Positions 14,501 to 49,673 of a DNA stretch of 56,584 bases are shown in pieces. Under the pieces are notes generated by a model. It made no database searches and was not told where the DNA came from. It worked only from the letters and a program-made list of their open reading frames with translations. How positions within the stretch are numbered: the stretch's first letter is position 1; every line of letters begins with the position of its first letter. Source of the DNA: Atractiella rhizophila (lineage: Eukaryota); NCBI GenBank assembly GCA_021432655.1, contig MU271218.1, positions 90,335 through 146,918 on the forward strand, in the 5' to 3' direction. The translations under genes were made by a program, and so were the position numbers.

Positions 14501-17500
14501 AGACTACTGGTGTGGTAACAGACATCTCATTAGAAGATAGAGCGGATCGAACAATACCCTGTGCTCATTCAAAAGCATAGCACATATTGTGGAACGAAAG
14601 TGGGGCTGAAGGTTGAATTTTACCTTCTTCGGGTTGTGCTCCTCCATTTCTGCTGTCCCCTTCGAATAAAAGTTAATAACTGAACAGCCGGTCTAAGGGT
14701 GCTCCTCGCATCGGCAGATGTGAGGCCGTTAGGTACTAGAAGGATAATCGTGGTCGACATTCCAGAGCGGCAGGCTCGCTTCGCAAACAGGTATGTGGGA
14801 TCGGGGACTTTCATGCCTGCCAAATGTGCGTCCAACTCTAACGTCTCTGATGCACGACATGTCTCCCGTTTCTGTCCTTTTTGCGTTTGTGGTTTAGTGG
14901 ATGAGGGAGAGCAGAGGATAGCGCATTCGAGGAGGCTCGTGGCTCGCGGAGGAGTCCAAGGTTGCAGACAGGGGATTGCAGGGTTACGACCTCCCGGTCG
15001 ATTGCACGGGGGCGAGGTGTGTTTGCCCTTGCTTTCCCTTTTCATCCTACACTTTGCAGATCGGTGTACTGATAGTGATGGACGGACGAGAACAGGCGTG
15101 CATGCAGACTGTCTCCCTCGCCAAGGACGGCGGAACATACGTCCAAGTCGACATGGCATTGAGTTCGTCCAGGTGGTGCCCGTCACTTGCCATCCTATGA
15201 AGGAGGTGACCGTCAACAGTCCGACCTACTGTCGCACTATAACTTCGTTCTGACGCTTCGTAGTTAATGAATTGCTCAATGAATACGGACCAGGGTGTTA
15301 TGAGCAAGCAATTATTCCCTAGGGGCCTGGCCTCGTAGACTGATGAGTCGCCATCACACATTGCTTTAAGTTCAAAATGCAATCTGCGCTCTTAGGGCCG
15401 CTCAGGTTCGTCTCTCCCTTTTGCTGTGATGTTCTGACGTTGACACCGGGTGATGTACGTTTCCAGGAAGCGAAGGTAGAGGATGAAGAGAACACAATCA
15501 CGACAATGACCGAACCTCGAAGAATGCTTAAATGGAACTCTTTGGACAAAGATTAAGGAATGAAGGGACAAAAAGATGGGAACTTGGTCCTTCAACCAGG
15601 GGCTGAAGGAATTCCATCGTTGGCCTTGTACCACGTCTTCGACCTCCGACGGCAGGTGCGCAGGTGCCAATTGGTCCATCATCGGAACGCAACAGTCATC
15701 GTCAATCGTGAGAACAGCTTAAGCAAGAGACCACCTCGGGACACTTTCTGGGCGGAATTTGATGTCTTAAACCCTTTTACAGCTAGCCAGTGAATTGTTC
15801 GCATGAGAGTAGACACCCGTAATACACACAGACAGCATTCTCCTCACAAACCGAATCTCCTCATACCTCTTCAAGGAACTAAATAAGCCTCCCCCCTCCC
15901 CCCCCATCCATCATTGTCTATATCCCTCTTCGATAAACTTTGGGAAATCGAATCACTTCGACATAGGAAACTTTAACGACATTGGACTCTAACAGTGCAT
16001 GCAGAAGGATTTGGTGCGAACGGGGTTGAAGATTCCTTGCAATTGTCGAGCGTGAGGTGTTGGGCATGAAGGAGGAGAGATTTGTGAGATGTGATACAAT
16101 GAATAGAGCTAGGGGATGGATGATTGACGGGTCCTATATGAACCCGCATCATTTCAATTCTGCGTTAGATGGAGACATGGATATGAACTGTGCACCTTCT
16201 TCTCTTTCTTCTCTAGAACACAGATGAAATCTGTACATCCAGCATCACTCCTCCCCTCCCTCCCGAACCCATGTACTTTTATCCCACTCGCTCACACCAA
16301 ACTCTCTCAACGTGCTCCTAGCTTTGAATATCTCTTCCTCAAGCCACCCTCCAAAGAATAGCTGAACACTCAACTTGCGTCCTCTCGTCGTCTTCACCTT
16401 TTCAGCACCATCCACCACATCCCTCTCCTCCTTCACCCCCCTGTCCCCAAAGAACCAGCAGATGAAATCTGAAAATACGAACGGAGTGAATCCCCAGTCC
16501 ACCACACAGTACTGAACATCTACCCAATTTATCGCTTTTGCATTTGTGAGTGTGTGGAAGAACTGGGGGGAAACGAGGTTTGAAGTTTCCTCACCACCGT
16601 CGAGGTAGAGGTCAGTGAGATGTTTGAGGTGTGACAAGTGGGTAGGATGGAGGTCTTTCCATCGGGTGAGTAGGGGGCGAGGGTGATCTCGAGATGTTCA
16701 AGTAGAGGCGGCAGACAGGAGCCAGAGACAGATGGAGGGAGGGGACACAGGTTGGAGAGATACAAATGCGTGAGGGAGAGTGGGAGAGAGAGCGATGGGA
16801 GAGGTGGGTATGTATGAAGCTCTAGTTCTTTGAGGTCAGATGATAATTGAAGGCCTGGTGATGTCGATGAGGCAGAGTCCTCCTCCACGTCATAAGCACT
16901 GAAGGTTCTGATCCTGTCACCCATCCTCCACATAAAATTCTCGACCTCATCCTTCTTGCACTTTCTCAAACCATACTCTCCAAAGGTTACGTTATTCAAC
17001 TTCCTCAAGCCTTCAATCGCATGCAACACAATCTTCGCTTCCTCTTCATTCCACAATGCATCCATGTACACGTTCCTAACGTTCGGTGCGTCGGCGATGA
17101 CGTCTTTCGCCATCTCAACGCTGATGTCATAGTAAAGCAGTTTCAAAAACCGGAGGGATGTCCACAACCGTCCTCTGGCATGAGGATATTGTTTCAAGCG
17201 GGCAAGCCTCTCCTCTATAGAAAGATCAAAATCATTCAAAAATGGGACTGAAACAGCCTTCCAAAGCTGACAGACGGCGGAAAGTCGCTCGAAGGAAACA
17301 AGACATTCAGCTTCAATGAGCAGTTTATTTTCATCAAGTGAAAGGAACTTGAAGATGAGTGAGAGGATCTCAGGAGGAAGGTGCATGATGCTGCATGGAC
17401 TAATACCTGTAGGTCGAGTTGTGGAGAGGGAGAGTTGGATGCTTGGCCCCAGACCGGTGGATGGGATGGTTGATTCCTCTCATTCGCTGAGAGGAATGAA

Positions 17501-20263
17501 ACGCTCTTGCCCCTTGGAGTATGAGTATAGGGCGACGGGGTCGAAGATGGCCTCAGAGCGATTATCTGGAAGGTGAAACGTGCATGTGAAGGGCTTCCGA
17601 GACAGGCGCTCCAATTCCAAGGATGCATGATGTTTGGTATCCCCAAAAGTCACCACAATACTTTCCTCCTCCAACGCAACGCAAAGAATCACTGTACTGT
17701 CGGGTTCGACTTCATTTTCGAGACCTGCCAGAGAGAAGTAGGATGATTTCGACGGCCCATAAGATTTGCTCCAGAATACCAGACGCAAGACAAATGTGAT
17801 CCGGAGCATGTGAATTGATGGAGGTAGGCGAGAAAGGAAAGAGGAGAGAATGGAGAGGTGGATCGGAGTGCCATGTTCTACCGTTACTGGGGTAATGAGA
17901 TGGACCAGTGCGATGGCTCTGTCCCCTGATCATCCTTGCATGAAATCGATGTTTTTCTTCTTTTCACTCTGGGAGATAACACGCTGGACTAGAGCCCACG
18001 AACGCACATTAAACGAGACAACAAGGTGAGAGATCGGGTCATGCCTGCAGCGCATCAGTGCATTGTCCAACTTGAACCATCTCGACGTTTTCCGCGCAAA
18101 GATCAGACATCACGATCGTGAGATCGCAAAACTGTTCGTGGGAGCCGGTGGATTAGGCGAGTTTACAATTAAGACTGGTGTTGGGTGGTGGAAGAAGTCT
18201 GCGTCCGGACGTTGAAGGCTTTAGTTCTCTAGCACTTGACTACCACATAGTGCCACAGGAAATCCTAAAATATGTAAAAGAACTAAAATCCTTTTACAAT
18301 ACTAGTACCTAAATTACACTGCAATTCAAACGAGAGCTAAAGCAGTACACTTTGATAATGCTGCTTCGTTCCCTAATGATCTGATTATAAGAGGAAAGGC
18401 TAGATAGGCCTGGGAGAGATAGGGCAGTTAGCAACATGATGGCAGGAGGAGCGGAGGTCACTTGCGTCTCAGCTAGAATATAGGTGATGTTCGAGTCAGT
18501 AGCGGGAGACAAGAGGGGCGGAAGGCAGATGCTTATGAGCATGAGAAAGGGGCCGACCTAGACATCCTCTTGTAGCCCTGGTCCACCATTGTCCCCATGG
18601 CCGCCCTTTCTCCAATAGCCATTTCATTGTTGACCTCGATGTCACGAAGCAAGCGTCGGTTGAAGTTGATCCATGGAGTCCAAGCCGTAGTCCGACAGAA
18701 AGTGGACGATGAGGTGGGAGAGAAAATATGAGGGAGGGCGGCATGGAACACGGGAGAGGCATAGGACGGTGGGGGATGTCAGGTGGCGCGAAACATACCA
18801 TGTTGATAATCGATCCCTTGTCACATCTGCCCTCTCCGCTATCCGACGTCCACGTTTGACCCATGCTCATGGACTTGGTGCAGGTGGAGTGCGAGAGGAG
18901 GTGGAGTGAGACTAGCAGAAAACGGAGAGATCGGCCTAGTGCACATGTCAATTAGGACACTTGCGGCAAGGAAAGAGAGGGAGAAAGGGAATACACTGCC
19001 AGCAGAAAGGAAAGTCCTAACCAGGCTAGAGTGCGAAAAAAGGCAGAGGGGTTGGCGGAATGCGAAATGAAGGGCCAACCTTGGCGCAGCGGGTAAGTGC
19101 AGCAAAAAGAGGAGGCAGAGGTCGAAAAGGAGTAGAAGAGACGCCGGAACGGTCCTTCTCACGTCCTTTTGCGATCACCGACCGTATTCATCCCCTCTCT
19201 CCACCATTTTCACCATTTGAAGTGGCTTTCATGCTTTGGGTTGATTTTAGAAGACCATTTTGCGAGAGAAGGTGGAAGGTGATCGGTGCAGCAGGAATAG
19301 GCAATAGTAGACGGCAAGAGAATAGGCGAGGCGGCGAAAGACGGCAGCACGATTGGGATGGGTGAATCGGTTGGCAGTGACTTCTTTCCAACCTCCTTTC
19401 CGACCCCATCTGAGCCACCGTCCACCTCCTTCGTCATCACGCGTCCCTACTACACTTCGCGGTTGACTTGCAATATCTACTGTGAAGCAAGTTGCTTACA
19501 GTCGAAGGAGGGCTGAAGTGCGCTTGGGGATGTTAGAGAGCGAGGTGCAACGAGAGGGCGACTGGGGGTGAGAGAAAGCATATCATGCCTCTCCCATGCC
19601 CAGGCTTAATCCACGACCCGCTGTGTGAGCTCCATCCTCTGCTTTGGCGATCCGACCTCCAACTTGACCTCGGCGTTCATTTCGGAGGACAGAAAGGTTG
19701 CTGGAGGAGCGGAGGATGTTGGATGTTGGGGGGGGGCAGGGGTGTGGGGAGAGAGGGATGCTGGAGAGAGCGAGGTGAGAGTTGTGGTGAGGATTATGGG
19801 AAGCGGGATAGGTTGGATGGAGGTATTGTGACCGGTGCAGGATGCGCTTACTGCTTCCGTTTAACTGCCGTCTCGCTTCATAGACCCGGGCTAAAGGTAA
19901 GGCAGGAGGCTGGGACTCGGAGGGTCTGGAAGTGCTGAGGCGGGACGGGATTGCAGACGGGAGATGGGCGACGGTGGACAGAGTGACAGTGGGAGAAACC
20001 TAATACCCATGTCAGTAAACGCAATTGCAAAAGAGGGAGAGGGAACGACGGTCACCTCTTCTCTCCGACCACTCTGCCCCTTCCATCTCTGTCACACCAC
20101 GCCTTCTATTATGCACTACTCTGTTCGCAGTGTATCTTATTCCCTCCTTTCTTTGCGCTGATTGTACTTGTCTGTTTATTACTTGCGCATACCCCTACTA
20201 CCGTCATCCCTCTCTGCGCCTCCCCACCTGTCGCGCCTGCTCTGTCCAAGTATTTCGGTTCGG
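11557..20263. repeat. Tandem segmental duplication unit, copy 2
   Basis: Collinear with 2387-11556, offset 9124 bp at the left end. It lacks the equivalent of ~4680-5110 and carries extra sequence at ~14880-15070. Confidence 0.92.
16245..17980 (-). pseudogene. F-box/LRR pseudogene, paralog of 7383-9116
   Basis: Three ORF pieces (17480-17809, 16529-17386, 16245-16637) align to the intact copy. Lesions: TGG to TGA nonsense at 17480 (LSEW to LSE*), a 10-nt deletion (GGTCGAGCGG) at ~16636 that shifts frame, and small indels near the 5' end. Confidence 0.9.
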
Positions 20264-25020: not shown

Positions 25021-25413
25021 AGACATTTCTACGGCCGTACACGCCGTATCCACAATAGCGCACTAAATGGCCGTCAGTCCGCGTTCTCCTGATGACGACG
25101 GAAGCGTAAGATAGCAACAGCTGTTCTCATCAGCGGTCCATCCTTCGAACATGCCCTTAGATAGTACAGGTACACCATGCACCTGAAGATATAGCATGAG
25201 ATGATGAAACGAAGTCTAAGAGGAACAGGTACATTTCAATACTCCACAAAGCAATGTTTGTCCTGTCAATGCTCAGGGACTTTAATGCCATCACGCAAAT
25301 CTCTCTCACCAGGTCCCGATCACTTTCAGACGAATCAGAATGCAGTTTATGCGACGCTGAATCTGCGACCTACCAATGGGGATGACCACAGTTCGAACAG
25401 CTTCAGAGGGCAT
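25021..25413 (-). pseudogene. 5' fragment of a DUF6534-like membrane protein gene, truncated by the Plavaka element
   Basis: ATG at 25413 (MPSEAVRTVVIPI); same exon/intron layout as 35645-36035; ends abruptly after VDTACTAVEMS at 25021. Confidence 0.87.
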
Positions 25414-25766
25414 ATCGAAAGCAGCTAGAAAGAAGGTACGTTCCAGCTTGGAAAGAGAGAAACAGTATTCGACTCTTTCTTCTCCTCCTCCTTGTAAAAT
25501 TGGTTACTGAGAGGTATTGTCGCTGTCCCAAATCGTACAAGACTAAATCAAAGTCTTCTTTTGTCGCTCTTCTTGGGACGCGATAAAATGGGGAGCTTGC
25601 GTATGGCTCTTCAGCGTTGTCGCTGATGTTCGAAGGTCTGCTTCTTGATCTGCAGGATTTAGCGCTGGATGTAGCGGGTTAGGTAGATTCTCTGCAGACC
25701 TCGTGAAAGATTAGTTGACAATGGAATGCTTTTGAGGTGCAGATGTTCCCAAAGACTAGTTTCAAG

Positions 25767-26880: not shown

Positions 26881-28262
26881 CATCCTCTACATACTAAGCA
26901 CTTCGTAGTTCGCTTAATCTGCTGCTACGAGTATATAGCCCTTAACAGCTTAGCGTGTACAACACAAGCTAAAGAATAAAATACCATACAATATGATGAA
27001 TCGTCGACGTGATAGAAATAGAGAACAATATGCGATTCAATATACTAGGAATGAAGAGGCTTTCTTGTATCAACCCAGAGTCCACTGCTGGATTTCCTTT
27101 TTCAGGAGACAGTAGAAAACACACCTAAATGACATATGAGAATCGGTAGAACACCATGGGACATACAACTTCACGGCCGTCACCATCTCTCGCTCTCCGG
27201 CACTGTAACCCTCACTTACGATCCCTTCTCTGGTGCTCTCTCATCGTCGGCAACCTCCTTTCGGCGCTCCCGTCCGCTCTCTTCCTCCGTCCAGCCTCCA
27301 TGCCTAACCCGAACTTCCTTCGGCCACTCTTGAGCCATACGCACACGTCTCCATCTCGTCCTCGTGCTCTGTGTATTCGATTTCCGAAGTCTACTGTAGG
27401 GTGGATGACGGAAAGGTAGGTGGGGGATGGAAGGGAGAGCGAGAGAGCGAGAGAGCTCTGGGAGGACGAACTGACGTTCCTCTCTCTCCTTAGTGATTCG
27501 GCCTCTGTTTCGCAAGCGGTTCTCAATTGACAAACGAGAATGGGCGACAGAGCCGGGAAGACGTTTATGGACGGAGAGAGTGGAAGGACAGCCTAGTTAG
27601 GGGTTCTTGCGACGTCAGCCTTCGTTCCCCAACCATTCCTGATCTATGCTCCTCTTTCGCATCCTGACCTTGCCCGTGCAGTGGGTTGATTGGGTAGTTA
27701 AAGGGTTTTCGATGGCGAACGGCGTCAGGTGGCAGGTGGAGGGCAGGATGGATAGCAAGGGGACAGGCGACAGAGACCGGCTTGTGGAGGCTCTCCGATG
27801 TCCTCCCTCCTCTCTGTCTTTTCCGCCCGTTCCTCTTCCACAATACGACGGGACGGAGGAGAGAGCGAGCAAGGGTTTCACTCAAACGAAAAGAGAAGGC
27901 GAGAAAAGTGGGGGGAGTAGTGGTCGGAAACTAACACACATACACGCCTCGTAAAGCATTACTGGAAGCAAAGCAAGGCTAAAGAAGGTGGAATGGGGAT
28001 CCTGAAGTAGTAAACAAAAAGTAGTTACAGTATTGCCACAAAGGATTTAGAACGAGTGACCGCTTCAGTTAAGAGATCCTAACGACGCGGGATGAGGAAT
28101 ATTAGGTCATGCTCTGCTGGAGAAGGAGAGCGGGAGGATAGTTGACGAAAGACGAAAGACTTCTAACTCCTATTAATCGAGATATTACTATAAGCTAAAC
28201 AGTAGTACACAACATGAAACTACTAGTCGATAGCTTTGATAATTCAGTGTCTGAACGAGTAG

Positions 28263-29196
28263 TCAGGATGTGAAGGGAGTTTGGTTTGGGGCATTAGATG
28301 CTTGGGGATGCGAGACCTGAGAAGCGTTCAGATCTCTGGATAAATCTCTGCCTCCAGTAAAATCACCGCCAGTGCAGCCAGTGTGGGAGATTTTGACAGG
28401 AAAATCCTTCTCTTCTTCACCCCATTGCTCCTCACTTGAATGTTCCTGCTCCTTGATGAGAAATGAAGGAACCCGAACAAGAGAACACTGACCCTTTTGA
28501 TCTGAACTGTCGTCTCATGCTGCACCGAAATGGCATCCATGAACATACTGGGTGTGATTTCGTTGGAATTAGGAAGAGCAAATTCAGAATCTGTAGTCGT
28601 ACGGCCAGGAGTACCAAGGGATTTCCTGATCAAGAGATTTATAAGGAGAGTGATCGTGTAGATACAACCGATATAAAAGGCAATGCCCGATGAGGCATTA
28701 CTGTAGAAACCGTCAGACACAGTGGCTAGATGGCAAAGGGTTCTATACCTTGTATTGTTGTGCAGGTAGGTTATCAATGCACAAGTAGTAATCTGGAGAG
28801 CGATGTCAATCCCAAACGATCTAGAGGGCGACTGCATCCTACCAAGGCAGTCGGGGTACCACTCTCGATTGCAAGTATGCATAATGTTGAGAGCAATTTT
28901 TTAGTCTCTATAAATCGGCAGGTCAGTTTCAGCTAAACGTGAGCATGAACTCACGCTGAAGTAGAGGCTTAGATCGATAAAGCAAGAGATGAACAATCAA
29001 AGTGGTAGCAATGGCAACATCTAAGTCGAACATTAGAACATATGCAAGTCGACTCGTGCAACTTACCACAGACAGCATGTGTGGCCACAGACAGACTGAC
29101 TGATGCTGTAAGCCTGTGTCGTTCTGAATATTCCTTGTGTGTGACTAGCATCACTGAGAGAAGTACACCACATCCGAAGGAAACAAGAGCAAGAAT
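28263..29196 (-). pseudogene. 3' half of a DUF6534-like membrane gene (934-bp near-identical copy of 34392-35325), fused in-frame to copia pol
   Basis: 934 bp, no indels, about 27 substitutions (manual count) versus 34392-35325. Introns and the stop codon (TPFTS*, 28263-28265) are retained; the 5' half is replaced by the retroelement. Confidence 0.9.
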
Positions 29197-32100
29197 AGGC
29201 TTGCTTTGCGCATGGTGAACGCCGTTTGTTGATATCTTTATTGCAGCCTGATTGTCTTCGAAGACAGTGGTTGGAGGGATCTCTTCTCCAGGAGATACGT
29301 TATGAACGCTTGCCAGGGCTCCTAGTTCTTCGTAAAGACCTCTCGTCCACAAGAGGTCTGCAGTTGCCTTTGCAGCAGCACCATATTCTGCTTCACCAGA
29401 AGAAAGGGCAACAACTGTCTGTGGTTTTGATTTGAAAGTGATGGGTGCTCCGCAGAGCATGGTGAGCCGACCTTCTTGCGACTTGAAAGAGGGAAGAAGA
29501 GAGGCAAAGGAAGCGTCGGCATATGCGTGAAGGGGTCTTCGATCGTTTCCGTTGAATAGCAAACCCTTGTTCGAGGTTGCACTGAGGTAACGGAAAATTT
29601 GTTTGACTGCTCTGAAATGATTTGGGCCTGGGTTGGCTGAGAACCGTTGGACATTCGAGAGAGCGTATGTTATATCTGGTCGTGTACAAACTGATAACCA
29701 GTTGAGGCACCCTGTGGCTTCGAGGAAAGACCAAGGAGGTTTGCTGGCAAGTTCTTCTTCAGTCCAAACCCCATCGAATGGCTCTAGTTTTACTTTTGGA
29801 TTTGCTGGCACGCTTGCGTAGCTATCTGTGAATCCAAACTTTTCAAGAATCGTTGCCGTGTAAACTCTTTGACTTAAGCTGATGGTACGCTTCTCCCAAT
29901 CCCGTTTTACTTCCATTCCAAGAAATTTTCCAACTTCACCAAGTGTTCGCATTGCGAACGAAGTCCCCAGTTCCCGTTGAAGTCTTTGGGCAACTTCTCG
30001 GTCCTTTCCTAGCAGGAGAGTGTCGTCAACGTATACGACTAAGATGTAGAGCTTGCCGTCTACGTTCTTGGTAAAAACGCAGGAATCAGACCAGAGTGGA
30101 GTCCAACCCTTTGCTTGAAGGTCTGTTTTGAGGGTGTCAAACCAGAGACGAGCTGCCTCCAACAAGCCGTACAGTCCTTTTTTTAGGAGGTATACTTTCC
30201 CTTCAGTTCCAGGTTTTTCGAGTCCAGGTGGTTGACGGATGTAGATTCGTGTTTTTGAGGTGTCTATCGGGGAGTTGAGGAAAGCAGTCTCGTAATCAGC
30301 TTGGTAGATAGATAAGTCTTCACGAGCGGCAAGGGCTACAACTGCTCGAATAGTTTCGCCGTTGCTTACTGGAGCAAAAGTTGGATCACCAGTTGGAGTC
30401 TGAAGGTCTCCTCGTACACAGATGCGTGCTTTCAGGCTTTCTAACTTTCCGTTGATATCGTATTTATGTCGGAACGCCCACATGAGTGGTGTAGCCGTTT
30501 CGCCTTCAGGAAGGTCAATAGGCTCACCCTCTATGGTCTTATTGAGGAACTGCTTCTCCCACTCGTTCCGACACGCCTCCAGCCATTCGGGACCTTCGTT
30601 GCTCTCCAATGCCTCTTTCAGACTACGGGGCTCTCGAAGTGTCCAGCCGCGATCTTGTAGGGCTCGTGTAGAGAACGTGTAATCGATGGAGTCGACGTTG
30701 ACATGCTTCGATGAAGGAATTTTGTGGCCCCACTTGCGAATCACCTCCTGTACGTCCTTCTTTGAGAGTTCGTCCACTTGAACCGCCACAGGTACACTGT
30801 CATTAGGGGTGTGCACGTCATGTAAGGCACAGGCACTTTCCTGTTGAATGGGTCTTACGTCCACCTCTACGTGCTTGGCCCCAATGCAACTGCCCAATTT
30901 CAAACTCTCAGGAGACACGGTGCTCCCTTCAACGTGCGTACTAGGAGCTAGACGGAGGATATCTCTGTATTTCGAGTCAATGACGTAGTCGTCATTGAGG
31001 ATACGCTTATTTGGGATTCTTTTTCGTGTGGAACGGCGAGGAGGTGGAGCTGTCTGAGTTGAGGTCGATGGATGGAAGGAAGGTGGCTCAGGTGGAGTGC
31101 TGGGACGTCTATGTGCGAAAGTTGGCTCCGTTGATTTGTCAGGGTAATGCTGATCATTTAGAGGAACATCACTTTCCTGAATTGCGGGTCTTACGTCCAC
31201 CCTTTCGTGTGAAGCGCCCTCGCAACTGCCCGTTCCCAAATTATCTCTCTCCTCAAGATTACTCGCCTCAAAGGAGCTTGGAATGGATGGAGATGGAGCT
31301 ATTGTTTCGATGGAGTTGGGAGCGGAAGGTGCAACTCGCACCCACGAATCGGGAAGTCCAGCATCAGAAGGTGCATCTTGAGGGAACTCATCTATATTCT
31401 TTTCTGACCAGAAAGAGTAGTCGTCCAGACGATCTGACCCAGTTCTCCCTTCGAAGTAGTTTTCAGCGAATATCACATGCCGTGCTCGAATTAGACGACG
31501 TTTCATTGGGTCCCAGCAACGATGCGATTTAAACATCACGTCAGGCCCAAGATAAATGCAGCGGACAGCCTTATTTTCCCACTTCCTCCTTCGCTCTTCC
31601 GGTATGAGCGCCCACGCCGTACAGCCAAATGTGCGTAGATAGCCAACTGAGGGTTGGATTCCTTCGAGATTTGTGAGTGGTATCTTTCCCTGTAGCGAAG
31701 AATGAGGAGTTCGATTGTAGACGTGGCCGGCAAAGTAGAGAGCTTCTGCCCAGAATGTCAGAGGAAGCCTTGCATGGTGGAGCATGGATTTTGCGAGGTT
31801 GCGGAGGGTACGATGGATGCGCTCTGCAATCCCATTTTCCTGATGACAGTAAGGAGTTGTGGTTTTCCATTCTATATTGTTGACTTCGAACCAGGATCGT
31901 AACAGACTGCTCACGAATTCTCCTCCTCCATCGACTTTCCATCTCTGCACTTTTCGTTGGGTTTTTGCATGGAGGATCGATCTGAATCGCTCAAATGAGG
32001 GAAGAACAGTTGCCTTTGACTTGTCGGGAATGAATTCCTGGTGCACCACTCTCGATCCAACATCGACGTGTACAATTGAATACCAAGCACCACCTAACGA

Positions 32101-34062
32101 AGAGACTTGCACAGGACCAGTTAAATCGGACACTACAGACTCGCCCGGAAGAGTAGGCGGGAGCTCGACGCTTTGCTTTGAAGGAAACGGACCACGATGC
32201 ATCTTTCCCATCACACATGGCTCACAAACTTCCTCAAAATCCTTTGCTTTCGCCTCTTTCACTTCCAAACCTCCAACCAGGGATTTCGAGATCAGATCTT
32301 TGATCTTCTCCATCCCGATATGCGCGAGTCTGTTGTGCCACACCTTCAGGTCGACAGCCTTTGAGGCAGTATCGATGTGAGTACTCGCCTTCGCCTTCCG
32401 TGCATCTCCCTTCAGCAGAAACAGTCCCCCTTTGTCCTCCGCCATTCCTACCAGCCCTCCCTTCCGATTAAAAATCTTGCATGCTCCATCTTCGAAAACC
32501 AGTTCGAAACGGTCGCGAGGTGGAAGAGAGAGACTGACGAGTTTGGAGACGCTTATGAGGGGGCTGGTGAGCGAAGGCAGGTGAAGAACGTTTTGAAGTA
32601 CGATGTTTGAGAGAGGTTGTCCATTTTTGTTGTGGGTAGTGTATTCCGCAGAACCTTTAGTCGTAATAGATATGCTTCTACCATCTGCCACCTCGATAGA
32701 TCCATTGTGCGGCTGACGATTGAAGATGTAGTCGAGGGGAAAGACATGAGAGGTGCAGCCCGAGTCGATGCAGGCGGCGGTTGCCACTTTGTCAAGAGAT
32801 AGATTCGCCTTGCTAACTGGCACCTCTTCAACCAGTCGTACTTGATCTCGGATGGCAAGTGAACGTATTGACTGGGCACTCGATGCAAAATCGGAGCTGA
32901 AATCGGAGACATTGAGGACAAGGTTCGCTTGGTCAGGAATGGAGGAGGTATCGATGGATGGTGACGCTACTTCTTTCCCGTTGTCTTTTCGCTTTGGATT
33001 GATCGTTCCGTCCTTGAATCGATATCCTGGGGGTGCAAGGACTCGATTTGCTTCTAGCTCCCAGCAGCGATCAGGGGCATGGGAGCGTAGGTTGCAATGA
33101 GGACACAAAGGGAAGCGATTCAATCCACTCTTTCTCCCCTTTTCTCCGACACTCCCACTGTTTCCACTCCCTCTCTGAGGTGCTATTGAACGCGAAACGA
33201 GGGCCTGTTCCTGTGCCTTCTGCACTTCACTGAGACCCTCTTCCAGCATAATCGTATTGATGGTGTTAGAGATCCATTCTGGGGTGAAGTCGATGAGAGT
33301 GGCTTGTGAGGATTTCGTTGCCTGCAGTGCCGAAAAATAGGGCTTCATCTTGTCGCGAAGTGAGTCTGGAAGTGTCGCTTGGAGGTGTGCAGAGAAAACA
33401 ATCGATTTCCAAGTCCCAGTAGTGAGCTTGTCTTCACCAACGTATTTGATGAAGTCCGTAAGATTCTTTTCGAGGACCGCCATGTGTTCTGTCCAGTGTT
33501 GAGGAGTTGTCCCACTGAAATGAGTGCGCGCGAAAGCACTCCAGGCGGTGACGGCATAGAGATGATTTGCTGCATCGTACTCTGTCTTGAGCCAATCCCA
33601 CATCTCCTTGGCCTTCTCTTGCAGGTTGTTCGCTTTGATCCTAGCTTTGATCCCATCGGAGAGTGATTCGTAGAGAAGTGCAGACGCCTGTAGATTCTTG
33701 TTCTTCCAAGCGATGGAATGTTGATCGAAGAGATAAAGGGCCGCTCCGTAACGAGATTCAATAGGCTCCTTCTCATCACCAGATGTGACAAGCCACAGTT
33801 GTTGGCTTCGCAGAGTCTCGTACGCATCTTCTTTCCACGCTCGATAGTTAGGTCCCTCAAGGATTGTAGGGATTTTTCGACTGGAAAACGAGATCGATGG
33901 AGAAGATGGCAATGGATCCATGGCGATGAGTTGGATTTCTTCTGGTTCTGGTGCAGGGCTACGTTGACGTGCGGGTGCTGTGGATGGCTCGGGGGTTGCA
34001 AGTCCGTAATCTGGTAGATTCTGAGGTAGAGATTGTTCGTCTGATCTTGGTGATCCTGACAT
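28969..34062 (-). CDS. Copia Gag-Pol polyprotein; the last ~75 aa derive from the host membrane gene
   Basis: Gag (YRAWKEDAYETLRSQQLW), zinc knuckle CPHCNLRSHAPDRC, protease CIDSGCTSH, integrase WHNRLAH..CEPC / SDLTGP / DGGGEF / ENGIAER, RT ADYETAFLN / LYGL / YVDD, RNase H YADASFA / SSGEAEY / EDNQAAI. At 29196 it switches to ILALVSFGCG... First ATG at 34062. Confidence 0.95.
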   Translation of the reverse strand: MSGSPRSDEQSLPQNLPDYGLATPEPSTAPARQRSPAPEPEEIQLIAMDPLPSSPSISFSSRKIPTILEGPNYRAWKEDAYETLRSQQLWLVTSGDEKEPIESRYGAALYLFDQHSIAWKNKNLQASALLYESLSDGIKARIKANNLQEKAKEMWDWLKTEYDAANHLYAVTAWSAFARTHFSGTTPQHWTEHMAVLEKNLTDFIKYVGEDKLTTGTWKSIVFSAHLQATLPDSLRDKMKPYFSALQATKSSQATLIDFTPEWISNTINTIMLEEGLSEVQKAQEQALVSRSIAPQRGSGNSGSVGEKGRKSGLNRFPLCPHCNLRSHAPDRCWELEANRVLAPPGYRFKDGTINPKRKDNGKEVASPSIDTSSIPDQANLVLNVSDFSSDFASSAQSIRSLAIRDQVRLVEEVPVSKANLSLDKVATAACIDSGCTSHVFPLDYIFNRQPHNGSIEVADGRSISITTKGSAEYTTHNKNGQPLSNIVLQNVLHLPSLTSPLISVSKLVSLSLPPRDRFELVFEDGACKIFNRKGGLVGMAEDKGGLFLLKGDARKAKASTHIDTASKAVDLKVWHNRLAHIGMEKIKDLISKSLVGGLEVKEAKAKDFEEVCEPCVMGKMHRGPFPSKQSVELPPTLPGESVVSDLTGPVQVSSLGGAWYSIVHVDVGSRVVHQEFIPDKSKATVLPSFERFRSILHAKTQRKVQRWKVDGGGEFVSSLLRSWFEVNNIEWKTTTPYCHQENGIAERIHRTLRNLAKSMLHHARLPLTFWAEALYFAGHVYNRTPHSSLQGKIPLTNLEGIQPSVGYLRTFGCTAWALIPEERRRKWENKAVRCIYLGPDVMFKSHRCWDPMKRRLIRARHVIFAENYFEGRTGSDRLDDYSFWSEKNIDEFPQDAPSDAGLPDSWVRVAPSAPNSIETIAPSPSIPSSFEASNLEERDNLGTGSCEGASHERVDVRPAIQESDVPLNDQHYPDKSTEPTFAHRRPSTPPEPPSFHPSTSTQTAPPPRRSTRKRIPNKRILNDDYVIDSKYRDILRLAPSTHVEGSTVSPESLKLGSCIGAKHVEVDVRPIQQESACALHDVHTPNDSVPVAVQVDELSKKDVQEVIRKWGHKIPSSKHVNVDSIDYTFSTRALQDRGWTLREPRSLKEALESNEGPEWLEACRNEWEKQFLNKTIEGEPIDLPEGETATPLMWAFRHKYDINGKLESLKARICVRGDLQTPTGDPTFAPVSNGETIRAVVALAAREDLSIYQADYETAFLNSPIDTSKTRIYIRQPPGLEKPGTEGKVYLLKKGLYGLLEAARLWFDTLKTDLQAKGWTPLWSDSCVFTKNVDGKLYILVVYVDDTLLLGKDREVAQRLQRELGTSFAMRTLGEVGKFLGMEVKRDWEKRTISLSQRVYTATILEKFGFTDSYASVPANPKVKLEPFDGVWTEEELASKPPWSFLEATGCLNWLSVCTRPDITYALSNVQRFSANPGPNHFRAVKQIFRYLSATSNKGLLFNGNDRRPLHAYADASFASLLPSFKSQEGRLTMLCGAPITFKSKPQTVVALSSGEAEYGAAAKATADLLWTRGLYEELGALASVHNVSPGEEIPPTTVFEDNQAAIKISTNGVHHAQSKPILALVSFGCGVLLSVMLVTHKEYSERHRLTASVSLSVATHAVCGKLHESTCICSNVRLRCCHCYHFDCSSLALSI

Positions 34063-34204
34063 CAAATTTCACGGATAGACGTGAGAACTTGGTGGGCTGA
34101 TTGATCGCGACGTGTCGTGTTTATTTGATGATGTATACGATTGTTGATAGAAGGGGAAGTTAAATTGGGCGGGGCGGTGAATGCTCGATCAGTAGGGATC
34201 GTTT

Positions 34205-34216
34205 GGGCTCATAACC
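34205..34216 (-). promoter_or_regulatory. Primer binding site GGTTATGAGCCC (initiator tRNA-Met half-molecule type)
   Basis: Directly abuts the LTR end on the minus strand; resembles the GGTTATGRGCCC PBS of Ty5/Drosophila copia-type elements. Confidence 0.88.
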
Positions 34217-34390
34217 TGTTGAACCTGAGGTTCATCTGAGGTTCATCAGAGTGACAGAAAGAAGAAAAGATGAACCTCAGATAGCTGAAAACAGACTAAA
34301 CTACGGGAGCGGGCGGAACTGACACCCGATGCGATAGCCAACTCGAGGGAACGAAAAGAACGTAAAGACGAAAACATAATAACTTCAACA
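34217..34390 (-). repeat. Long terminal repeat, 174 bp
   Basis: Bounded by TGTTGAA...TTCAACA inverted termini; PBS on the inner side and host gene stop codon 1 bp away on the outer side. Confidence 0.9.
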
Positions 34391-34391
34391 A

Positions 34392-36035
34392 TCAGGATGT
34401 GAAGGGAGTTTGGTTTGCGGCATTAGATTCTTGGAGATACGAGACCTGAGAAGCGTTTAGATCTCTGGCTAAATCTCTGCCTCCAGTAAAATCACCGCCA
34501 GTGCAGCCTGTGCGGGAGATTTTGACAGGAAAATCCTTCTCTTCTTCACCACATTGCTCCTCACTCGAATGTTCCTGCTCCTTGATGAGAAATGAAGGAA
34601 CCCGAACAAGAGAACACTGACCCTTTTGATTTGAACGGTCGTCTCATGCTGCACCGAAATGGCATTCATGAACATACTGGGTGTGATTTCGTTGGAATTA
34701 GGAAGAGCAAATTCAGAATCTGTAGTCGTACGGCCAGGAGTACCAAGGGATTTCCTGATCAAGAGATTTATAAGGAGAGTGATCGTGTAGATACGACCGA
34801 TATTAAAAGCAATGCCCGATGAGGCATTACTGTAGAAACCGTCAGACACAGCGGCTGGATGGCAAAGGGTTCTATACCTTGTATTGTTGTGCAGGTAGGT
34901 TATCAATGCACAGGTAGTAATCTGGAGAGCGATGTCAATCCCAAACGATCTAGAGGGCGACTGCATCCTACCAAGGCAGTTGGGGTACCACTCTCGATTG
35001 CAAGTAGGCATAATGTTGAGAGCAATTTTTTAGTCTCTATAAATTGGCAGGTCAGTTTCAGCTAAACGTGAGCATGAACTCACGCTGAAGTAGAGGCTTA
35101 GATCGATAAAGCAAGAGATGAACAATCAAAGTGGTAGCAATGGCAACATCTAAGTCGAACATTAGAAAATATGCAAGTCGACTCGTGCAACTTACCACAG
35201 ACAGCATGTGTGGCCACAGACAGACTGACTGATGCCGTAAGCCTGTGTCGTTCCGAATATTCCTTGTGTATGACCAGCATCACTGAGAGAAGTACACCAC
35301 ATCCGAAGGAAACAAGAGCAAGAATTGCTAATATGCTGGTACGTATGAAGTTACGAGACAGTCTGTGGTAACGCTGGATAAAGTAGCTTTGTACTACCAA
35401 GGCGACAGTGACTACAGTGATGTTAAGGTAGTTTCTGTCCTAGAAGAAGGATTGACCAGTAAGAAAAATGTAAGTGGGAAACTCCCATCCTACATTCGAA
35501 CGTCAGAGAGCTGCACACTAACAAACTGAATGAATTGCTCACCTTGTCGCAGGAGGTACGCTTCATTCCCCCAATTTGTGACCGTGTATGCATAAACGCC
35601 TGAGGGATCATCAGGAAAGGGGAACAAACGGAAAGAAACGCACATGACATTTCTACGGCTGTACAAGCCGTATCCACAATAGCGCACTAAACACCGTCAT
35701 TCTTCGTTCTCATGATGAAATAAACGACGGAGAGGGACGATGGCAATAGCCGTTCGCATTAGCGGTCCATCCTTCGAACATGCTGCCGAATAATACAGGT
35801 ACACCAGACACCTGAAGGAGTCACATAAGATGATGAAGCTCTAAGGAGAGTTACATTTCAAAACCCCATAAAATGGCATTCGCCCTGTCAAAGGTCAAGA
35901 GCTGTCCAGGCGCCATTACAAAGGGCTCTCACCACGCCCCGATCACTATCGAAAGAATCAACTGCATTCGGAAAGAACTTAAATACGGAACTTACCAATA
36001 GGGACGACCACAATTCGAAAAGCTTCAGATGGCAT
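34392..36035 (-). CDS. DUF6534-like multipass (about 7 TM) integral membrane protein, multi-exon
   Basis: ATG at 36035 (MPSEAFRIVVVPI). Spliced translation includes DTACTAVEMSCVYAYTVTNWGN, VVQSYFIQRY, DVAIATTLIVHLL, AIESGTPTAL, IGRIYTITLLINLLIR; stop 34392-34394. These motifs are typical of basidiomycete DUF6534 proteins. Confidence 0.85.
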
Positions 36036-36559
36036 TACGAAAGCTTCAGGAAAGTATTTTCGAGTGAAACAGTGTTGTTCAATTCCTTCGACGTAAAGTT
36101 GGTTACTGAGAGGTCTTTGCTCTCCCAATTCCTAAGAGAACAAATCGAGGGGTTCCAGCGATTTATTTCGTTGCTCCTCTTTTTCTAGACACGAAAATTG
36201 GGGTGTTTTCGGTTCTTCTGCACCGTAGACGAAACGAAATTGGAGCGTCCCTTCCAGTTGATCTGCAGTACAGGACAACATCAGTTGAGACCTCTGAGAG
36301 ATCTAGTTCCATTCGGCCCGGCTACAGTTGGACTCCGAAATCCTGTCGAGGCTCGAAGCGCGCATGTTCCCAAAAATCAAGATCAAAAAAGATCAGTTTT
36401 ACGACTCTGAGAACCGAAACCCACGAACCCACACACTCTTAGGCTGTAGAGCTATGTTTTTGGATGGGCAAGCTGCTTGGAATGTGCAAAGGGGAGTGAT
36501 AGTACAGTGGCAATATCGTCGACATTTTAGCAGGTCCGATCTTTAAGATTGAAGCGACA

Positions 36560-40812: not shown

Positions 40813-42432
40813 ATGGGTAAGTCTGATTTGGGCCGTTGTATCGCTCATTCAGCTCGCATTTTCTGCCTAGACTATGATGACCCGCCACCAGTTCCTCCCG
40901 AACTTGCCCATTCACTCCTAATAAGCAATGTTCAACCACTTCTCATTGGTCTCTGGGTGACGATCGCTCTTTGGACGGTAGAGGTCATGCTTGCCATTAA
41001 GTGGTATCAGAAATATTGGAGTAAAGACCACTGGTTGGTGAAAATTGCGATCCTTGTAGTAAGCCCGTCACCTTCTTCGACATCTCTTCAATACATCCCT
41101 ATCTATCAGGTAGTTCTCAACGAGACAACCGCGCTGGTAACGACTTCATGGGAAGTTTACGAAATATGTATCACTCATTGGAGTGAGCATTCCTAATTAC
41201 ACAAGAAAGGCGCCTGCTGAGTTTGACAGGCGACATAAGCATCCTGATCAAACTTCGCTGGCAAACGTTAGTTTCTAGCTATTTGCCCATACACTGAGAC
41301 CCAAGCTGAGTTGGCAAACAGAAAAGTGCATCCTCTCTTTATCGGTTCGTCCACTGCTTCACGTCAAAGCAGTTGGAAACTCTGCTGAATTACATTCTCC
41401 ACTGAGGCAGGCATCAGCTCGGCAATTCTCCAGGTGTACCTACTCGTCCGATACTTCCGTATCGCGAACAACAAGTGGATCACTGGCCTTCTGGGATTGG
41501 GAATTGGTGCCAGCGTAAGTTGTGACTTTGAATCCAAACATATGAATAAGAGGACTCCCAGTTCGCAACCTGCATTCGACTAGTTGTCATCCTCATCCAT
41601 CAACATCCTTACCCTTCCCCAGATATGGACGGCGTTCCTCGAATAGTGACAGCATGGCTCATCACCGCTTCTGTAGTCGGTTCGTCCGTCCACCGCTGAC
41701 CGCTTCCTTCCTCTGATCATCGGTGGGATGGGTGACCAGATATCCTCATTACGCTCGCTCTCGCCTTTTGTGTGTACAAGATGCGACGGAAGATCATGGC
41801 GAAGGGGACGAAGAGACTGTTGGGACAGGTGATCCAGATCTCATTCGAGACTGGGGGACTCACGAGCGCACTCCAAATCGGTAACTTATCTTTTCCTCAC
41901 GTTCTGGTTCAACCTGAAGTGAAAGGAAGCTGAACACCCGCCATAGCTGCCCTGATCACATATCTCTGCGGTCGTGCCAAGGCGACGAACAACGGGATTG
42001 CCTATCCGCTCCGGACCACCCGTCAGTTCTTCCGTTACAGGTGTGGCATGCTGACGACGTCTGTTTTACGATTATTCAAAACAGTTGGCCTCGTCTTCTT
42101 CTACAACCTCCTCGTTCGTTCCTCTCTCCTGCGCACCAACACGCCGTCCGAATCCCCAACTTTCTCGCTCTCCGAACCCCAATCCTGGTCACGGTGGAAA
42201 ATGTGGAGGAGGAGGGAAAGAGAGCTGGAGATTGGCGTGTCGGTGGAGGTTGTGCAGGAGACGGTGAAGAGTGATGCGGTTCGTTTTTTCTATCATCCCT
42301 CATTCTTTCTTGGAAAACTGCTCTCCTTAGAGGCAGCTCAGAGAAATTGTCACAAAGAATCCAGAGTTTGCATGGACATATGTCCTTATCCGGCTCACTC
42401 ACTTCGCGAGACGCCGATACTCTCATCTTTAG
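40813..42432 (+). CDS. Divergent DUF6534-like multipass membrane protein, multi-exon (3' end uncertain)
   Basis: ATGG|GTAAGT first exon at 40813, then PLLIGLWVTIALWTVEV...KDHWLVKIAI, EICITHW, ILQVYLLVRYFRI, AWLITASVVDILITLAL, FETGGLTSALQIAALITYL, FFYNLLVR, with canonical introns. Confidence 0.82.
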
Positions 42433-42936
42433 TCTTTTTGTCATAAAAATAAACAGGCTCGACAATTCTAGCCAGTTCCCCCCTTTCTACCGGAAATTTA
42501 CACCTCAAAGGCCTCCGTTCTCTGCATATACACAAGACATTCCGCCATCATTGCTTCGTTAGCTGGGAATATTATCTCGCTGACCTCGAACTGGGGCGAA
42601 ATAGGACGAGCACGCTATCAGCTTGGACTCCGCCGCCGCCTACTACCGTTCGCGTTCACGGGCTCTTGCCGCTGTCCCCTCTAGAGTGGTGGAGGAGGTG
42701 GAGGTTGAAAATATTCGATGATTGTTTATGGTATCATTGGTATTTCATGTTTATATAAGGCCTATCGTACAGCTATGTAAATTCAGACTTGTTCCCAGTC
42801 TCAACCTCGCATTCCGCACTCTCGCATTCTAACCTTAACCTTTCCGTATACGCCGTATTCACAATATCCTTATATAAAAAGCACGACGGGTTTGACCATG
42901 ACTCACGCATGTACTTTTGAGCTCTTATATCACCGC

Positions 42937-44149: not shown

Positions 44150-44174
44150 NNNNNNNNNNNNNNNNNNNNNNNNN
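44150..44174. other. Assembly gap (25 N)
   Basis: Run of N in the sequence. Confidence 1.
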
Positions 44175-44626
44175 GTGGAGGTTGTGCAGGAGACGGTGAA
44201 GAGTGATGCGGTTCGTGTTTTCTATCATCCCTCATTCTTTCTTGGAAAACTGCTCTCCTTAGAGGCAGCAGAGAAATTGTCACAAAGAATCCAGAGTTTG
44301 CATGGACATATGTCCTTATCCGGCTCACTCACCTCGCGAGACGCCGATACTCTCATCTTTAGTCTTTTTGTCATAAAAATAAACAGGCTCGACAATTCTA
44401 GCCAGTTCCCCCCTTTCTACCGGAAATTTACACCTCAAAGGCCTCCGTTCTCTGCATATACACAAGACATTCCGCCATCATTGCTTCGTTAGCTGGGAAT
44501 ATTATCTCGCTGACCTCGAACTGGGGCGAAATAGGACGAGCACGCTATCAGCTTGGACTCCGCCGCCGCCTACTACCGTTCGCGTTCACGGGCTCTTGCC
44601 GCTGTCCCCTCTAGAGTGGTGGAGGA
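44175..44626 (+). repeat. Near-identical copy of 42243-42696 (3' end of the divergent DUF6534 gene)
   Basis: 452 vs 454 bp, differing by two substitutions and one 2-nt indel by eye; begins right at the gap. Confidence 0.95.
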
Positions 44627-46250: not shown

Positions 46251-46319
46251 ACATGGGAGAAAGAGGCACCACCTGTTTCTCACTTTCCACACGAAAATAT
46301 TGTGCTGACTGCTGTTGCG

Positions 46320-48995: not shown

Positions 48996-49673
48996 TTCAT
49001 GTTGTTAGCTGCTGGCCAGATTCAATCTGGTACAAACAACCTGACGAGAGGAAGATTGGGTGGTAAATGGACCGATAGAACGGTGAACATTTCTCAAACT
49101 TGGGCCATGTTTGAGACCAAGGTCGTGGTGTCAGCCCATCCCACTTCAGAACTTGCAAGCTCCTTCCATGCCACTGTCTGTTGAGGAGACTCATGGACAA
49201 GCGCAACTTTGGAATATTTGTCATCCAATAATTTCAGAAGCTACAGTTCACTGCAAGCATGGTCAGCTTCCTTCTCCCTCTCACAGAGACTATAAGGGTG
49301 TGGGTAGTAGGTTCTGAGAGCCATCAAAGAATGAGGGTTGGAACTTCCGCACGTCCGGAGAAGTCCAGAGTCGCAAAAGAAATGTGGTCGAATGTAACAA
49401 GATCTCCAGAGGTCGTTCCTGGCAGCGGTATTATTGCAGATGAACATCCCCTTAAACCGAAAAGCACTAGCGAAAGTATTCCCATTTATTGCCTCTGGAA
49501 GGGCAAGAGAAGGTTTTGGAGCTGTGATTTGGTCTTGCAGGAATTTGGGCAGGGAAGGAACAACTCAGTGAGGGACTCCTTTATAAGGGACAGGGAGATT
49601 CTGCATTGAAAGAGACGATCAGAGTGCCTCCCTTTCCGCTTTCGGAAAATACTTCCTTCCAGCCACAGTTGTG

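Follow-up and report, generated by a model that had tools for sequence, protein, structure and literature searches.

We found that the window, by which we mean the whole 56,584-nt stretch analysed here (Atractiella rhizophila, contig MU271218.1, positions 90,335 to 146,918, forward strand), is best explained by a canonical retrotransposon insertion and one abnormal join. A young Ty1/Copia element would have inserted, in the same orientation, at a site one base past the stop of a gene for a putative DUF6534 seven-helix membrane protein; the target duplication, CTGA(C/T), would contain the stop, and the host gene, made up of its 5′ half and one copy of its 3′ part (copy B), would have been left intact. 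In the window, the element lacks its 3′ LTR and polypurine tract as well as the last 50–70 codons of RNase H, and past the junction a second copy of the host gene's 3′ part (copy A) runs on, introns and stop included, into the flank of the unoccupied site. One novel, non-homologous join, from the occupied allele (left) to the unoccupied allele (right), would suffice for this arrangement, and the in-frame Gag-Pol/membrane-protein fusion would be an incidental by-product of that join, with no function. We assign a probability of roughly 85% to this anatomy and the by-product status of the fused frame, held jointly.

Results

A young Copia element that ends within RNase H

The positions of all features are collected in Table 1. 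The stop-to-stop ORF 34068..28969, on the minus strand, encodes 1699 aa, and from the first ATG at 34062 to 29197 there are 1622 Copia codons with no stop, in agreement with the stop-free gag-pol of ~1620 codons reported in the preliminary description. Pfam domains occur in the order Retrotran_gag_2, Pol_BBD, gag_pre-integrs, rve, SH3_retrovirus, and RVT_2, the motifs DSG, HHCC, DD35E, and YVDD are all found, and BLASTP alignments are colinear with two full-length Copia polyproteins (P0005 and P0074). As in Ty1/Copia elements, a single polyprotein thus holds gag, protease, integrase ahead of reverse transcriptase (RT), and RNase H, and a primer-binding site after the 5′ LTR goes together with a short target duplication. 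The nearest database proteins, in a protein search of 934–2974 aa sequences only, are 34–38% identical over RT-RNase H, with none above 38%.

Table 1. Features at the Copia insertion and the junction, in window coordinates.
Feature	Position	Strand	Basis and details
Copia gag-protease-integrase-RT and truncated RNase H, one ORF	29197..34062	-	ORF listing, Pfam, BLASTP, motifs
5′ LTR, 174 bp, TGTTGAA...TTCAACA	34217..34390	-	Sole LTR copy in the window; BLAST matches itself only
Primer-binding site GGTTATGAGCCC	34205..34216	-	Immediately after the LTR; one match in the whole window
CTGAT, 5′ copy of the target-site duplication	34391..34395	-	Holds the copy B stop; 4/5 bases equal 28266-28262
CTGAC, unoccupied-site pentamer	28262..28266	-	Includes the copy A stop TGA; counterpart of the target-site duplication; sequence and contig joints in X1 and X2
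Novel junction	29196..29198	-	Copia sequence shared with other copies to 29198; host identity from 29196
Copy A, 3′ part of the host gene	28263..29196	-	Runs on into the downstream flank; self-BLAST, spliced model
Copy A exon pieces (6)	29196-29067, 29020-28955, 28907-28843, 28792-28749, 28700-28493, 28445-28263	-	
Stop reached by the fused frame when host intron 1 stays unspliced	28969..28971	-	75 residues past the junction
Copy B	34392..35325	-	Continuous with the gene's 5′ half; splice sites and frame all intact
5′ half of the host gene (putative DUF6534)	35326..36035	-	Partial exon model; frames kept against two window paralogues; P0121 tblastn; X3 splices

The Copia family is abundant, with nearly identical copies in the contig sets that we used for comparison (X1 to X4). 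The 4.9-kb frame is within ~0.5% of other copies, and 2–5 letters differ per 400–860 nt between the Copia ORF and X1/X2 contigs. Because the ORF is uninterrupted and so few letters differ, the element is much younger than the divergence between copies A and B described below. Its LTR begins one base past the copy B stop codon, and the LTR termini (34217 and 34390/34391) are independently backed by contig joints and loose ends, in a family that is highly repeated. The primer-binding site is presumably complementary to the stem-loop that carries the anticodon in initiator tRNA-Met; no tRNA genes were found in the window.

At the other end, alignments to P0005 and P0074 stop where the window reads ‘SKP I’ and the references ‘SKH I’, 52 and 68 residues short of the polyprotein ends. 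Self-BLAST of the window returned no second copy of the LTR, nor does a purine tract adjoin an LTR anywhere in it. The element is a truncated member of its family, short of the two LTRs, polypurine tract, and complete RNase H of an autonomous copy. Since the RNase H tail, polypurine tract, and 3′ LTR are absent, it is unable to transpose by itself, as previously claimed.

The host gene is unbroken, and its 3′ part occurs twice

Self-BLAST aligned 28263-29196 (copy A) with 34392-35325 (copy B) over 934 bp at 97.1% identity, with 27 differences and 0 gaps. The preliminary description was silent on this duplicate and on the intact parental gene. Copy B terminates at its own stop codon, and its stretch 35011..34395 exactly encodes a named protein of 174 aa, P0122. 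In the 5′ half of the gene, X3 contigs carry spliced joints at 35809/35853 and 35945/35996. The host gene, consisting of the 5′ half and copy B, is unbroken and lies directly upstream of the 5′ LTR.

Copy A keeps the donor at 29066, five intact GT..AG introns (46, 47, 50, 48, and 47 nt), and an intact stop at 28263-28265, and once spliced in the model it contributes 231 codons, in which there are four hydrophobic segments; the retained splice signals and the roughly four transmembrane helices proposed earlier were both borne out. We ran the Pfam search for DUF6534 (PF20152) on eight unspliced ORF fragments and the named protein P0121. None of the eight unspliced host fragments matched (0/8), and P0121 did, scoring 30.5 bits over residues 162-218 (cut-off, 28.2), with copy A identically encoding the matching residues. 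P0121 is nearly identical to the copy A product, copy A being of the P0121 type at 9 of 10 discriminating residues. Each also has a residue of its own, T19 in copy A and N27 in P0121, so that at least three distinct sequences exist near the junction. The coding differences between A and B (11 synonymous, 12 non-synonymous) are the same alleles as in the intact gene for P0121, and copy A shows no constraint signal of its own.

Two simple routes to this structure were rejected. After a simple tandem duplication on the occupied chromosome, a second element should follow copy A, and unoccupied-site sequence does instead. The retained introns, and the continuity of copy A with genomic flank, do not accord with retroviral-type transduction or with a template switch to host mRNA. 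More broadly, the region covered by the window is dynamic: it holds tandem duplications of older date and another three paralogues.

The in-frame junction is no more than chance expects

The peptide at the junction reads ‘...HHAQSKP/ILALVSFGCG’ (the slash marks 29197/29196), and the junction frame is the host's own, in which copy B reads SILAILALVSFGCG; the reported in-frame passage into the host exon is correct. The sequence is contiguous with no N, and at the junction it jumps back 6129 bp into the middle of the same host gene. Base 29197 is T on the minus strand, matching neither the C of the other Copia copies nor the A of copy B. Just past the junction, an imperfect match of 7/8, TTCCTGCT against TTCTTGCT, one base out of register, was noted by eye. 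The first 50 nt of copy A show 0 differences from copy B, and the next 40 nt show 4. Metagenome matches to a junction-adjacent 20-nt stretch came from two loci otherwise unlike the window and were set aside as chance.

An expressed fusion would be an LTR-driven, spliced mRNA encoding Gag-protease-integrase-RT plus four membrane helices, for instance a membrane-tethered or dominant-negative Copia inhibitor. The 1622 and 231 codons are open, 5/5 splice-site pairs are intact, and neither the 5′ LTR nor the primer-binding site lacks any part; since the Copia family is abundant in nearly identical copies, there would also be something for a restriction factor to act on. However, a join is in frame in 1 of 3 cases by chance, or 1 in 6 if orientation is counted, so the fusion is no more than chance expects, and the caution attached earlier to the fusion, that the odds were 1 in 3 and function was unproven, was right. 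The Copia frame is open because the element is young, which also counts against a selected product, as do the balance of synonymous and non-synonymous A/B differences and the lack of a fused homologue among 129 protein matches (934–2974 aa), each of which covers at most 87% of the query and ends at the junction. The proposal further presupposes a junction that may not be real. We consider an expressed fusion very improbable, and we think just as little of its variant on a real join, a membrane protein of a new kind whose ectodomain comes from a retroelement, or a newly born, membrane-tethered dominant-negative inhibitor of an active Copia family.

Other contigs hold the canonical 3′ junction

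In the duplicated part, the contigs of X1, X2, and X3 are mosaic for A-type and B-type letters, and those of X1 and X2 may not be from the window's isolate; X1, X2, and X3 share variant letters in the flank and also hold the window's letters at many sites. One contig apiece in X1 and X2 joins 28266 straight to the LTR end at 34217, and these contigs have depths of 121.8 and 195.6, compared with 140–335 around them, or about haploid. What the joint shows is a canonical 3′ junction for an insertion at this very site, and it is through this joint that the short target duplication is read. From the Copia side, loose ends occur at 29198 in two contigs of X1, two of X2, and one of X4, and all five of the listed contigs that reach 29198 go on with sequence translating to SKPFLLCYHMVRE, the expected RNase H continuation. 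Thus, with a canonical LTR-flank joint in X1/X2 and RNase H continuing past 29198 elsewhere, the locus resolves into a canonical insertion plus one non-homologous join. None of the contigs listed bridges 29196/29197. X3 is RNA-like (GT..AG joints), and one of its contigs is a spliced host transcript that passes the stop into the flank without an LTR; no X3 contig covers 28870-30439, though contig data cannot prove absence.

These joints also bear on a one-step aberrant integration, in which a 3′-truncated Copia cDNA would have entered and duplicated 934 bp of its target, through staggered breaks or at a replication fork, copies A and B being identical at birth. The order flank, copy, insert, copy, flank formally fits a long target duplication. 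However, A and B are 2.9% apart while the 4.9-kb Copia frame is stop-free and close to its relatives, and given the canonical short-duplication joint in X1/X2 an independent second insertion at the same nucleotide would be needed. We consider this very improbable, and the least probable of the alternatives that we weighed.

Origin of the join

The non-homologous join could have arisen in the assembly or in the DNA. We give an assembly origin, which the preliminary description had named as a possible refutation, about an even chance and hold it to be slightly more likely than a real join. Two haplotypes of a heterozygous genome would then have been set one after the other (false heterotype duplication), and the true occupied allele would carry a complete element. 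The A/B divergence is about the local heterozygosity, X1 and X2 having at least 20 heterozygous or variant sites within a 631-bp piece of flank (27333-27963), with the same variant letters in X3. Allelic-level divergence between copies and haplotype-specific k-mers would fit a false heterotype duplication, and heterotype false duplications are described as the main duplication error of heterozygous assemblies (PMC9516828). In one named assembly, the gene for P0122 (copy B exactly) is on a contig of 146,918 bp and an A-like intact P0121 gene on one of 60,484 bp; lying on different contigs, the allele-like sequences are thus kept apart there.

Three further points favor the assembly as the source. 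Elsewhere in the window, another duplicate (42243-42696 against 44175-44626, 99.1%) begins exactly at the edge of a 25-N gap, and the junction is bridged by none of the contigs listed. The run of 50 nt without a difference followed by 4 differences in 40 nt would fit a k-mer path of ~51 that switches haplotype, the first A/B difference being base 51 of copy A; this is a weak lead, as k was picked afterwards. Against an assembly origin, there is no gap at the junction, although gaps between copies are among the listed hallmarks of false duplications (PMC9516828), and at the other doubtful spot the same assembly does have 25 N. An assembler would have had no overlap between the two sides to use, base 29197 fits neither, and the junction resembles end joining. 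Nor is copy A simply P0121's allele written twice, each having its private residue (T19 and N27), and X1/X2 contigs on copy A at ~29086-29183 are roughly diploid in depth (bin means; contig depth is not copy number). A contig over the junction may also exist among the 523 pieces and 31 loose ends beyond those listed.

If the join is instead real DNA, the event would have taken place in a diploid or meiotic nucleus that was heterozygous for the insertion. The occupied homologue would have broken in the RNase H region, and end joining or template switching would have linked it to mid-gene sequence of the unoccupied homologue. The outcome would be a 6129-bp tandem-duplication unit, a dead, 3′-truncated Copia, and a fused frame without selected function. 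We regard this as a serious possibility, although its chances are somewhat below even. It is consistent with a contiguous junction without N, with its non-homologous character and single orphan base, and with the 7/8 match by eye of TTCCTGCT and TTCTTGCT beside it. Copy A differs from both copy B and P0121, and both A/P0121 differences lie in the first 81 nt past the junction, which is possible for error-prone repair; the older tandem duplications and three further paralogues of this dynamic window point in the same direction. However, a real join requires that homologues exchange sequence non-homologously, and such exchange is less frequent than events between sister chromatids; an A/B divergence equal to local heterozygosity is likewise what marks a false heterotype duplication. 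The canonical LTR-flank joint in X1/X2, with no listed contig over the join, argues against it as well. In X1, depth is 198.7 for A-placed and 218.5 for B-placed contigs and 245–335 in the flanks, uneven across sub-ranges; the summed A+B depth of ~200–220 is not above the flanks, a weak objection, contig depth not being copy number.

Discussion

Under either origin, the host gene is intact, whereas the element is dead. A real join would make this a clean, datable case in which a retrotransposon insertion, while heterozygous, gave rise to a tandem duplication and to a gene fusion, and in which a single non-homologous exchange between homologues supplies raw material for new genes, with no functional sign yet. 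If it is an assembly join, it would serve as a warning, applicable to heterozygous fungal assemblies, that allele pairs with a polymorphic transposon may be written in tandem without a gap and misread as gene capture.

Transposon-host chimeras and env-like capture are exemplified by the env-like ORFs of Sireviruses and by domesticated fusions such as SETMAR. The window resembles such chimeras in having an open frame that runs from pol into host coding sequence downstream, and the preliminary description had placed a chimeric gene at the position of env-like capture. That proposal fails on the anatomy. Captured env-like genes are ORFs between pol and the 3′ LTR that are mobile with the element; in contrast, the host part here lies outside the element with no 3′ LTR or polypurine tract after it, keeps its introns, and continues unbroken into its native, unoccupied-site flank, while the intact parent stands 6 kb upstream, directly upstream of the 5′ LTR. 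Neither the contigs listed nor the protein matches gave a sign that the fusion is expressed or conserved. The layout is that of a tandem-duplication-type join of occupied and unoccupied alleles, not of capture.

With Ty1/Copia (Pseudoviridae), the element shares a single gag-pol frame, the protease-integrase-RT-RNase H order, a short LTR with TG..CA ends, and a short target duplication. It differs from that group in its missing RNase H tail, polypurine tract, and 3′ LTR, and in a stretch of ~270 additional residues that separates integrase and RT. The likeness to Ty5 lies in primer choice, with the primer-binding site directly after the LTR presumably pairing with initiator tRNA-Met in the region of its anticodon stem-loop. 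Ty5 is described as priming with an internally cleaved tRNAiMet (PMC5371799). Finally, the window departs from false heterotype duplications (PMC9516828) in that its copies have no gap between them and its junction is non-homologous without N; it resembles them in having adjacent copies at allelic divergence, one per flank.

Results

The Copia frame continues into a host gene

A stop-to-stop frame on the minus strand (34068->28969; 1699 aa) contains 1622 codons of Ty1/Copia polyprotein, counted from the first ATG at 34062. Pfam domains occur in the order Retrotran_gag_2, Pol_BBD, gag_pre-integrs, rve, SH3_retrovirus, RVT_2, and the DSG, HHCC, DD35E and YVDD motifs are found. BLASTP alignments with two full-length Copia polyproteins from the databases, P0005 and P0074, are colinear and terminate at '...HHAQSKPI' (against 'SKHI'), 52 and 68 residues short of the respective C-termini; thus, the last part of the Copia RNase H is absent. 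Past 29197/29196, the frame reads on as ILALVSFGCG...

The host sequence that follows (copy A) was modelled from GT..AG sites, the named A. rhizophila protein P0121 and one spliced contig. Once spliced, the model adds 231 codons in Copia's frame, with four hydrophobic segments and a stop at 28263-28265. None of the eight unspliced host ORF fragments matched the DUF6534 profile; in P0121, a hypothetical protein of 329 aa, residues 162-218 match PF20152 with 30.5 bits (cut-off 28.2), and copy A encodes identical residues there. The preliminary description had reported Copia Gag-Pol fused in frame to the membrane-spanning half of a receptor-like host gene, and the frame, junction, introns and stop were all borne out. 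'Receptor-like' is used because a preprint, relying on machine-learning predictions, proposes that seven-helix DUF6534 proteins may be GPCRs (10.1101/2024.11.25.625238).

Features of the Copia element and the modelled host portion
Feature	Position	Strand	Detail
5' LTR	34390-34217	minus	174 bp, TGTTGAA...TTCAACA
Putative primer-binding site	34216-34205	minus	GGTTATGAGCCC, directly after LTR
Copy A exon pieces (n = 6)	29196-29067, 29020-28955, 28907-28843, 28792-28749, 28700-28493, 28445-28263	minus	modelled
Copy A introns (n = 5)		minus	46, 47, 50, 48, 47 nt; GT..AG sites

The host piece is duplicated, and the parental gene is intact

Self-comparison aligned 28263-29196 with 34392-35325 (copy B) as an ungapped 934-bp duplicate of 97.1% identity; the 27 differences are exonic (23; 11 synonymous, 12 non-synonymous) or intronic (4), and the host stop codon is the exact end of each copy. 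This duplicate had been left out of the earlier account. Copy B runs uninterrupted from the gene's 5' half with its frame and all five splice-site pairs intact, and 35011..34395 encodes the named protein P0122 (174 aa) exactly. The host gene is intact, not disrupted.

Both protein models look mispredicted (window 34395-35011, 35984-36302): P0122 begins in an out-of-frame stretch and spans the last 174 aa only, while P0121 omits part of a transmembrane exon and a 25-residue exon piece, and its first ~100 residues align to window sequence containing stops. The window also holds two further full-length paralogues of the DUF6534 gene (46281-47955 and 49671-51315, plus strand) and a fragment (25022-25549), ~70% identical in DNA, which together form a small gene cluster. 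An older tandem duplication (2392-10492 vs. 11516-19273; unit ~9 kb) has pieces 76-79% identical.

Inferred occupied and unoccupied arrangements

Parts of the window were found in four public runs (X1-X4), compared as contigs only. One contig each in X1 and X2 joins 28266 to 34217 (LTR end, CTGAC, flank), at depths of 121.8 and 195.6, about half of the surroundings. In the window, the LTR starts one base past the copy B stop and is preceded by CTGAT, identical to CTGAC at 4/5 bases, so these joints indicate a canonical insertion whose 5-bp target duplication contains the stop codon. Neither a second LTR copy nor a purine tract adjoining an LTR is present in the window.

A and B look like two alleles: their divergence (2.9%) equals local heterozygosity, and P0121, encoded by an intact gene on a different contig of the same named assembly, agrees with A at 9 of the 10 residues that tell the copies apart. 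We infer that copy A with its flank is the arrangement without the element, and copy B with the LTR the arrangement carrying it; a single novel junction, 29197/29196, would suffice to build the window from the two. At least 20 variant sites are listed for the 631 bp of flank at 27333-27963; many are near half depth in X1/X2, and X3 has the same letters.

Of the four runs, none is listed as RNA. X3 behaves like RNA, because its contigs have GT..AG joints. One of 372 nt uses the 47-nt intron and extends from the final exons across the stop and on into the flank with no LTR, differing from the window at 11 letters in 28210-28444. For this transcript contig through the unoccupied site (28059-28444), the 11 letters that fall in 235 nt of copy A approximate the A/B differences there (10), and its 32 upstream nt map to copy B, so there may be an unoccupied allele in which B-type letters predominate. 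Another X3 contig, at depth 104.6, connects 34685 with 35542 across 856 skipped nt with non-canonical ends; a paralogue, an allele with a deletion or an unusual isoform may account for it.

Other routes fit poorly. Simple tandem duplication on the occupied chromosome is excluded, as copy A would then precede an element, and the native flank and retained introns exclude capture through reverse-transcriptase template switching. One-step integration with a 934-bp target duplication is very improbable, given 2.9% A/B divergence beside an uninterrupted 4.9-kb Copia frame and a canonical LTR-flank junction at the identical nucleotide.

A real or an assembled junction

All five listed Copia-side contigs (X1, 2; X2, 2; X4, 1) diverge from the window at 29198, and their continuation, reverse-complemented and translated in frame (SKPFLLCYHMVRE), is the expected Copia RNase H. 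This places the break at 29197/29198 and leaves an orphan base, 29197, that matches neither copy B nor other Copia copies.

We put the probability that the assembly joined two haplotypes here at about one half. The copies diverge at the allelic level, the same assembly places allele-like genes on separate contigs, and a second duplicate begins immediately beside the only gap in the window. Copy A has no A/B difference in its first 50 nt and four in the following 40; X1 and X2 show the canonical 3' junction, and none of the listed contigs bridges 29197/29196. Heterotype false duplications are described as frequent in PMC9516828, which also gives gaps as a hallmark of false duplications. The junction, however, is gapless, although N was written elsewhere in this assembly, its two sides share no overlap usable by an assembler, and one base is an orphan. 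Moreover, T19 is private to copy A and N27 to P0121, neither lying more than 81 nt from the junction, so three distinct sequences (A, B, P0121) exist, and contigs adjoining the junction were placed on copy A. These same observations argue that homologues did undergo a non-homologous exchange, a rearrangement without function, which we regard as a tenable but somewhat less probable alternative.

Directly after the gap itself (25 N, 44150-44174) comes 44175-44626, 99.1% identical to 42243-42696; this pair represents a false duplication at the gap edge or else two LTRs separated by the gap.

The fused frame and its Copia family

No evidence points to a function for the fused frame. The earlier interpretation is supported in part, and autonomous transposition of this element is impossible. 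A real junction encoding a functional chimera is very improbable: an in-frame join has a chance of 1/3, the Copia frame is open because the element is young, and the A/B differences are allelic and found in an intact gene too. Among proteins of 934-2974 aa, with the 8000 candidates sharing most words scored, no fused homologue occurred in 129 matches, each one ending at the junction. If transcribed, an LTR-started RNA would continue into copy A and use the host terminator. The fused locus reflects either a commonplace type of event or an artefact.

The Copia family is abundant and recently active. LTR bin depth reaches 11,434 (X1) and 28,872 (X2) vs. a few hundred elsewhere, and 2-5 letters per 400-860 nt separate Copia contigs from the window. 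Low-depth X3 contigs (~4) have plus-strand GT..AG joints at 31368-31419 and 31848-31895, opposite the Copia ORF, and may represent spliced RNAs transcribed antisense to the family. Between integrase and RT lies a Pro/Ser-rich stretch of ~270 residues (30650-31450; ORF residues ~873-1140). It contains an internal repeat (...HERVDVRPAIQES... and ...KHVEVDVRPIQQES...), and the aligned relatives lack a corresponding stretch.

The putative primer-binding site is presumably complementary to the initiator tRNA-Met anticodon stem-loop; the window holds no tRNA gene for comparison. The closest relatives in the protein collection reach at most 38% identity over RT-RH. The family is new, though of a known type, and lacks a close relative in that collection; priming from the initiator tRNA-Met anticodon stem-loop is of the Ty5 type (PMC5371799).
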